Sequence record: OR539219.1
Reading direction: 5' to 3' (one strand)
DNA length: 64,000 nt
DNA from: Escherichia phage vB-Eco-KMB39
Shown: positions 54,274-55,056 of the stretch, one piece after another
Layout: the number at the start of each line of letters is the position of its first letter
How positions within the stretch are numbered: the stretch's first letter is position 1
Translations under genes and position numbers: made by a program
The notes under the pieces: model-generated
Seen by the model: only the letters and a program-made list of their open reading frames with translations
Told to the model about the DNA's origin: nothing
Database searches by the model: none

Positions 54274-55056
54274 ATGGCAGTAGTAGGAATTCCTGGTTGG
54301 ATTGGGACTTCAGCCGTCGCTGAAACAGGCCAACGTTGGATGACAGCAGCTTCTAGAGAATTACGTCTAGGGAACCCATCTTGGATGTCCCAATTCGCGG
54401 GCCGCTCAAGAGAAATTATTCATACACTTGGAGCAGACCATAACTTCAATGGTCAATGGTTCCGAGATAGATGTTTTGAGGCAGGTGGTGCACCTATAGT
54501 GTTTAATATCACTGGAGATTTAGTATCATATTCTAGAGACGTTCCTTTATTCTTCATGTACGGAGATACACCGAATGAATATGTTCAATTGAATATACAC
54601 GGCGTAACGATGTATGGTCGCGGCGGGAATGGTTGGGCTGCTGGAGCGATTGGAGCGTCTGACGGTGGTGTATGTATCCAAAATGATATAGGTGGACGCC
54701 TACGAATTAATAATGGGGGAGCTATTGCTGGAGGCGGCGGCGGTGGCGGTGGATATTCGCAAGCCAATAACTGGGCAGGAAAATATGTATGTGGAGGCGG
54801 CGGTGGTCGTCCATTTGGTTTAGGCGGAAATAATGGTGCTCGATGGCCTGGTGGAAATGCTAGCTTAACAGCACCTGGTGCTGGTGGTAATACTGGCCAA
54901 TATTGGGCTGGCGGTGGAGGTGAAGTTGGTCAACCAGGTCAATATGCTAATCCAGGTAATGGTTATTCAACACCTCCGACAAATCCTGGTGCTGCTGTAG
55001 CAGGATCGGCTCCAACATGGCAAAACGTTGGAGCTGTATACGGTTCAAGAGTATAA
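54274..55056 (+). CDS. 38: Tail fibre adhesin gp38, T2/T6 type with glycine-rich motifs
   Basis: 260 aa; poly-Gly stretches ([38 protein letters not shown]) separating variable segments. Confidence 0.85.

Follow-up and report, generated by a model that had tools for sequence, protein, structure and literature searches.

The gp38 adhesins of T-even phages use a range of outer-membrane proteins. T2 recognizes FadL and Bas47 OmpF (PMC8594841), with Tsx serving T6 and OmpA serving M1, K3 and Ox2 (PMC8594841, PMC12032242). [quoted passage not shown] A member of that group, PP01 gp38, binds OmpC of O157 via loops D and E, with loop B being essential, and its N-terminus must match the partner gp37: placing PP01 gp38 on T2 gp37 requires that the N-terminal 113 aa be swapped (PMC12892980). 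In the S16 complex (6f45), gp37 is trimeric and has an intramolecular chaperone at its C-terminus, and gp38 is a monomer made of an attachment domain, a β-helix and a polyglycine-II sandwich.

Here we analyze gene 38 of Escherichia phage vB-Eco-KMB39 (KMB39) in a stretch of 64,000 nucleotides (OR539219.1), referred to in its entirety as the window. The window is Tequatrovirus DNA that shows 94–95% identity across 20 kb to several phages on deposit and is a 100% match to none. Family, fold, receptor class and mosaic evolution of such proteins are already published, and gene 38 is a correctly identified, ordinary adhesin gene. A protein differing by one residue is on deposit (from bov9_1), and a domain of 96% identity has been crystallized with its receptor contacts mapped.

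Gene 38 and its product

The initial annotation placed a 260-aa ORF at this locus, and the ORF is real: both the sequence and the ORF list give an ATG start, 260 codons and a stop on the + strand (Table 1). The surrounding gene order is g36 (Phage_T4_gp36)-g37-g38-t. A poly-Pro ORF on the minus strand (54585–54767) is a mirror of the poly-Gly codons and was discarded as a gene. Upstream, the protein at the gp35 position (49131–50246) has a Pfam hit (1.1e-08) to ILEI, the interleukin-like EMT inducer family, a name one would not expect on a tail-fiber hinge protein; its homologue in another locus of our collection (L025) gives the same match.

Table 1. Features of the gene 37–gene t region (window coordinates)
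Feature	Position	Strand	Basis
Gene 37, distal long-tail-fiber subunit, 1089 aa, predicted to be capped by gp38	50974–54243	+	ORF; Pfam Gp34_trimer, Peptidase_S74
gp37 putative C-terminal intramolecular chaperone, aa 984–1089, from SDIRCK	53923–54240	+	Peptidase_S74 at aa 984–1039
Hairpin AGGGCC-TTCG-GGCCCT, between g37 stop and g38 ribosome-binding site	54248–54263		MFE -12.3 kcal/mol
Shine-Dalgarno GGAGG, 5 nt 5' of g38 ATG	54264–54268	+	direct sequence reading
Gene 38, predicted receptor-binding adhesin	54274–55056	+	ORF, Pfam, PDB matches, AF2 model
N-terminal attachment domain, aa 1–46, Gp38_N, Bas47/JS98 type	54274–54411	+	Pfam PF21721
Crossover interval, codons I49–G53, Bas47-like left, CAM-21/KMB42-like right	54418–54432	+	discriminating sites
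GRM1, YGRGGNG, aa 114–120	54613–54633	+	motif composition, alignment entropy
Loop A, WAAGAI, aa 121–126, same as PP01	54634–54651	+	alignment
GRM2, A + 8 Gly, aa 152–160, contains GGC/GGT repeat	54727–54753	+	repeat finding, alignment
16-nt direct repeat TGGAGGCGGCGG(C/T)GGT, in frame, 63 nt apart, flanking loop B	54729–54744, 54792–54807	+	
Loop B (HVS2), aa 161–173, same as PP01, with equivalents of PP01 Y159, K168, Y169	54754–54792	+	
GRM3, aa 174–185	54793–54828	+	alignment entropy; five-Gly run in 109/120 relatives
Loop C, NNGARW, aa 186–191, same as PP01	54829–54846	+	alignment
Loop D, NTGQYW, aa 206–211	54889–54906	+	alignment with PP01
GRM5 region, aa 212–222	54907–54939	+	alignment entropy
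Loop E, NPGNGYS, aa 226–232	54949–54969	+	alignment with PP01
Gene t (holin), downstream neighbor as in all T-even phages	55087–55743	+	Pfam Phage_holin_T 5.9e-117

Two Pfam families, each with a cut-off of 25, match the protein: GP38 (PF05268; 243.1 bits, 3.9e-72), with all profile positions covered (1–218 of 218), and Gp38_N (PF21721; 73.2 bits, 1.7e-20) at aa 1–42. No NCBIfam model matches. Among PDB entries, the PP01 gp38 receptor-binding domain (RBD; 9v85) was matched over aa 39–260 at E = 7e-137 and full-length S16 gp38 (6f45_D) at E = 8e-52. We built an AlphaFold2 (AF2) model of the gp38 monomer on 58 homologues (mean pLDDT 85). It superposes on 9v85 with an rmsd of 0.6 Å over 214–215 columns and matches 6f45_D at E = 1e-20; the PDB yielded no fold match to the model beyond these two. 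Residues 1–50 have low pLDDT in the monomer model, which is unsurprising in a domain whose packing partner is gp37. The 96% identity to the solved 9v85 structure over aa 47–260, together with the model match, supports the β-helix plus polyglycine-II sandwich fold. Relative to S16, gp38 has about 45% identity and other loops, and the S16 receptor is Salmonella OmpC. The Pfam and PDB matches, with no similarity to T4 gp38, bear out the annotation of a T2/T6-type adhesin. Judged from these homologies, which also predict its location in the virion, gp38 is a tail-fiber adhesin of the T2/T6/S16 type.

In the most probable mechanism, gp37 would trimerize assisted by a chaperone domain at its own C-terminus (aa 984–1089), which would then cleave itself off at the SDIRCK motif. 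The tip so exposed would dock the N-terminal 46 residues of gp38, the rest of which is predicted to fold into the β-helix and a sandwich built of the glycine-rich motifs. Five loops, A–E, would protrude from the sandwich and make reversible contact with the receptor, for which the O157-type porin OmpC of E. coli is predicted; LPS sugars may contribute to binding via loop B. Taken together, capping of the long tail fiber by a gp38 monomer through this mechanism, the predicted O157-type OmpC receptor and the two-module recombinant origin described below make up a reading that we consider very probable.

Receptor class

To assign a receptor class, we aligned gp38 with its counterparts from bov9_1, CAM-21, KMB42, PP01, AR1, SYGD1, Bas47, JS98, T2, T6 and M1 and with an S16-like protein. 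The tip (aa 118–235) is 100% identical to those of bov9_1, KMB42 and CAM-21, a phage with recorded host O157:H7, and 96% identical to those of PP01 and AR1. Identities to Bas47, T2, T6, M1 and the S16-like protein are 48–55%. The gp38 proteins of T2, T6, M1/K3/Ox2 and Bas47 belong to the same family and share glycine-motif order and genomic position with KMB39 gp38, yet their tips are only about 50% identical to it, so the receptor classes differ. This alignment, along the lines suggested in the initial annotation, places the protein in the PP01/AR1 OmpC class and not with T2 (FadL), T6 (Tsx) or K3/Ox2/M1 (OmpA).

Phages with RBD DNA at least 99% identical to that of KMB39 (CAM-21, G157lw, Ec_O157kw) have hosts recorded as O157:H7. 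We found no receptor determination in the literature for CAM-21, KMB42 or bov9_1. Because the tip is 100% or 96% identical to those of O157/OmpC phages, and about 50% identical to those of other classes, we infer that the receptor is OmpC, with some uncertainty as to the OmpC alleles accepted. The practical value of this assignment is one of annotation: it places the host-range determinant in the small OmpC-binding group of gp38 proteins and predicts activity on strains with O157-type OmpC.

Differences from PP01 in loops D and E

KMB39 and PP01 share the same loops A, B and C. In PP01 numbering, and beyond the attachment domain, the two proteins differ by S70G, S198A, T207Q, loss of G208, Y210W, A228N and I254V. 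Loop D, NTGTGYY in PP01, is thereby NTGQYW in KMB39 (T207Q, G208 deleted, Y210W) and one residue shorter, and loop E reads NPGNGYS instead of NPGAGYS, the equivalent of A228 being Asn229 in KMB39. The Tyr and Lys residues critical in PP01 (Y159, K168, Y169, Y209 and Y230) are retained as Y161, K170, Y171, Y210 and Y231. The comparison gave a dS of 0.45 and a dN/dS of 0.04; the tip is therefore under strong purifying selection, its few replacements being located in loops D and E.

Mutational data exist for several of these positions in PP01. Both A228D and deletion of A228 abolished infection, hydrophobic substitutions alone being tolerated there, and deletion of G208 is tolerated (PMC12892980); T207 changed convergently as PP01 adapted to O157 (PMC6027323). 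Because KMB39 gp38 departs from PP01 at mapped contact loops, its OmpC allele range could differ. With a polar Asn at the tip of loop E, at a position that must be hydrophobic in PP01, and with a shorter, remodeled loop D, the subtype comprising CAM-21, bov9_1 and the window phage might dock differently on OmpC, or take other OmpC alleles than PP01, although we regard this as doubtful. If true, it would offer a natural example of retargeting, in which exchange of a Mosigvirus/Dhakavirus-type gp37-tip/attachment module is combined with loop tuning.

A bolder version, in which the NTGQYW/NPGNGYS variant has shifted its specificity to another set of OmpC alleles or to another outer-membrane protein, strikes us as unlikely. 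It draws on the confinement of all tip replacements relative to PP01 to aa 200–229, where they include T207 and the A228 equivalent, a site at which a polar change kills PP01, and on a dS showing that the two subtypes parted long ago. Against this, loops A–C and the five Tyr and Lys residues named above are those of PP01, which tolerates loss of G208; phages with virtually the same RBD DNA are recorded on O157:H7, and identity of the tip to every non-OmpC class is only about 50%.

Glycine motifs and deletions

Glycine makes up 23.5% of gp38 and 32.7% of aa 114–260. The three glycine motifs quoted in the initial annotation all occur in the translation, within aa 153–163, 173–188 and 211–222. 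We assessed the order of motifs and loops in alignments of 11 and 118 sequences. A set of relatives comprised 120 cluster representatives from a search of 5.8 billion proteins. This large protein database was used in place of IMG/VR, where a single-protein scan gave only 12 loci; a profile scan of IMG/VR with one of our alignments (A1) confirmed 0 loci. Among 118 aligned relatives, mean column entropy is 0.27–0.41 bits in GRM1–3, compared to 1.7–2.6 bits in loops A–E, with the GRM4–5 regions less conserved (1.0–1.3 bits). Indels cluster in the loops, after positions 123, 170, 187, 207 and 226, rather than in the motifs, and 109 of the 120 relatives have a run of exactly five Gly in GRM3. The arrangement proposed earlier, in which conserved glycine motifs border variable segments, is seen throughout the family, with motifs and segments in a fixed order.

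A GGC/GGT simple repeat, previously put at about 54738–54760, does exist, but it is small and was slightly misplaced. Eight consecutive Gly codons lie at 54730–54753, and Tandem Repeats Finder calls no more than (GGCGGT)x3.3 there (54733–54752, score 33). The Gly codons of the gene are mixed (27 GGT, 17 GGA, 13 GGC and 4 GGG), and perfect repeats are therefore few, the longest perfect trinucleotide repeat being (GGC)3 (9 nt, 54733–54741).

Deletions are seen in some relatives. In four of the 120 representatives (P0005, P0043, P0064 and P0085), motif 2 is fused to motif 3 and loop B is gone, leaving 4, 4, 6 or 7 Gly at the fused motifs; P0111 is missing 12 aa between later motifs. The loop-B deletions remove exactly the interval bounded by the 16-nt direct repeat that flanks loop B (Table 1), and the DNA of two deletion copies confirms in-frame junctions within GGY runs. 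One of these copies (L024, 4001–4585), which is also interrupted by a premature stop at codon 47, comes from an E. coli assembly contig and lacks a holin gene t downstream; the other (L025, 4001–4717) adjoins a gp37 of only 477 aa. In T6, every single HVS or GRM deletion was non-viable (PMC3157838).

Could the poly-Gly run be a slippage or contingency repeat, with frequent changes of tract length or frame that vary host range? The GGC/GGT-rich run, the direct repeat on either side of loop B, the loss of loop B in different registers and the shortened P0111 are what this idea would call for. We nevertheless judge it very unlikely. The longest perfect repeat spans just 9 nt and the Gly codons are mixed, the five-Gly run of GRM3 is conserved with indels concentrated in the loops, and GRM2 retains its eight Gly in every PP01-type gene even at a dS of 0.45. 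In addition, the premature stop and the truncated gp37 accompany the deletions themselves, and deletion results in T6, together with the essential role of loop B in PP01 (PMC12892980), speak against viable products (PMC3157838). For these reasons, the loop-B deletions are probably rare, defective products or artifacts rather than a host-range switch. The suggestion that the repeat might favor slippage or recombination is weakly supported: rare deletions between motifs 2 and 3 do occur in databases, but the shortness and imperfection of the repeat, the conserved tract lengths and a crossover located elsewhere tell against it.

Mosaic structure of gene 38

Residues 1–46 are 100% identical to those of Bas47 and JS98, compared to 52–54% for CAM-21 and KMB42 and 57% for PP01, where the alignment has two residues missing. 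In a site-by-site comparison, the last site discriminating against CAM-21, KMB42 and PP01 is 54417 and the first discriminating against Bas47 is 54433. The crossover so delimited falls at the junction of the two Pfam domains, between N-domain and RBD and away from the glycine motifs. Recombination at glycine motifs has been proposed in the literature, but the only resolvable crossover in this gene is the one at codons 49–53.

A 100-nt scan gives the same picture. Region 53531–54430 is closest to TH40, Bas47 and JS98, with CAM-21 and PP01 at about 75% or unalignable; from ~54431 through gene t and beyond, identity to CAM-21, KMB42 and bov9_1 is 99–100%. Most of the close DNA relatives match gene 38 only from nucleotide 139–145 on. 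The 3' end of gene 37 and the 5' end of gene 38, used together as a query, find Mosigvirus (Bas47, PhAPEC2, VR26), Dhakavirus (JS98) and Gaprivervirus (TH40) phages at 88–94%. Within the RBD, divergence from PP01 in the scan is gradual (83–98% per 100 nt), with no abrupt step at any motif. On this sequence evidence, gene 38 is a recombinant of two modules: one, the gp37 tip plus the gp38 attachment domain, is common to Mosigvirus, Dhakavirus and Gaprivervirus phages, and the other, the receptor-binding part, to the O157 phages CAM-21, KMB42, PP01 and AR1. This pattern agrees with the rule that the gp38 N-terminus must match gp37 (PMC12892980).

The closest deposited relatives carry one or both modules. 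The gp38 proteins of bov9_1 and bov10K1 (MT884006, MT884007) match over their full length (98.9% in DNA, 99.6% in protein, 259 of 260 residues). The bov9_1 protein is the same chimera of Bas47-type N-domain and CAM-21-type RBD, and differs by S72 in place of G72, along with 8 synonymous sites in the gene. The gp37 C-terminus upstream of it is just about 83–95% identical to that in the window. The junction is common to bov9_1 and the window phage, so the event is older than their split. The gp38 proteins of CAM-21 and KMB42 (OP611477, OR539221) have an RBD identical from codon 53 on, bar G72/S70, in contrast to their divergent attachment domains and gp37 tips, and these phages use another gp37–gp38 docking module. 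The KMB39 RBD is hence identical, apart from G72, to the RBDs of several O157 phages, and the locus offers a clean natural example of the rule that the gp38 attachment domain follows the gp37 tip whereas the RBD can be swapped, a rule useful for engineering chimeric fibers.

Several smaller features accompany this structure. Gly72 corresponds to an A-to-G change at 54487, the CAM-21/PP01 group having Ser. The window has four synonymous differences of its own (54363, 54369, 54372 and 54378), all within 16 nt of a stretch that is otherwise identical to Bas47. Gene 37 (50974–54243) is, in the 100-nt scan, a fine-scale patchwork in which the best donor changes every few hundred bases: PP01 at 51331–51530 and 52231–52530, CAM-21/AR1 at 51531–52030, Bas47 at 53131–53730 and TH40 at 53531–54230, with identity falling to 55–75% between segments.

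The partner gp37 and T4 gp38

The C-terminal 170 aa of gp37 are homologous to S16 gp37 in the gp37–gp38 complex (6f45_A, E = 4.7e-31), and SDIRCK at aa 984 aligns opposite SDRRIK of S16 gp37. From the S74 chaperone and this homology, gp37 would belong to the class of fiber subunits presenting a tip to which an adhesin binds, with self-cleavage predicted to expose the gp38-binding surface.

T4 gp38 occupies the same locus between g37 and t under the same gene name, and several database relatives of KMB39 gp38 are labeled 'distal long tail fiber assembly catalyst', but the reading as a T4-type chaperone, which assists gp37 assembly and is not part of the virion, has next to no chance of being correct and is refuted at the level of sequence and fold: T4 gp38 (183 aa) gives a BLASTP E value of 19, shows no detectable similarity, lacks glycine motifs and matches neither GP38 nor Gp38_N, T4 gp37 is of another type (Collar and Phage_fiber domains without the Peptidase_S74 found in KMB39 gp37), and the relatives so labeled themselves carry adhesin domains. 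The BLASTP result also answers the concern, raised with the initial annotation, that the best homology might prove to be with T4-type chaperones. Two of the labeled proteins illustrate the point. The teqsoen gp38 (L027, 1501–2286) contains both adhesin Pfam domains on scanning, and JS98 gp38 (L009, 5071–5859) aligns over its full length with the adhesins, glycine motifs included; such labels look like annotation carry-over from T4.

Intergenic and transcription signals

The hairpin between genes 37 and 38 (54248–54263; Table 1), with its UUCG loop, is conserved in bov9_1, Bas47, TH40 and JS98, and is no more stable than expected from shuffled sequence (z = -0.65). We rejected it as a terminator for g37, there being no T-tail on the + strand. 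A T-run comes after it on the minus strand, where it scores as terminator-like and could stop antisense (early-direction) transcription.

The T4 late-promoter consensus TATAAATA is absent before g38, the nearest copy lying upstream of g36 (50278–50285), and occurs in the window no more often than expected by chance. Given the motif before g36 and none before g38, genes 36-37-38 are probably co-transcribed. Just past gene t, inside asiA on the opposite strand, lies a strong 14-bp hairpin with a T-rich tail on the + strand (55786–55818), which may be the terminator of the late tail-fiber/holin transcript.
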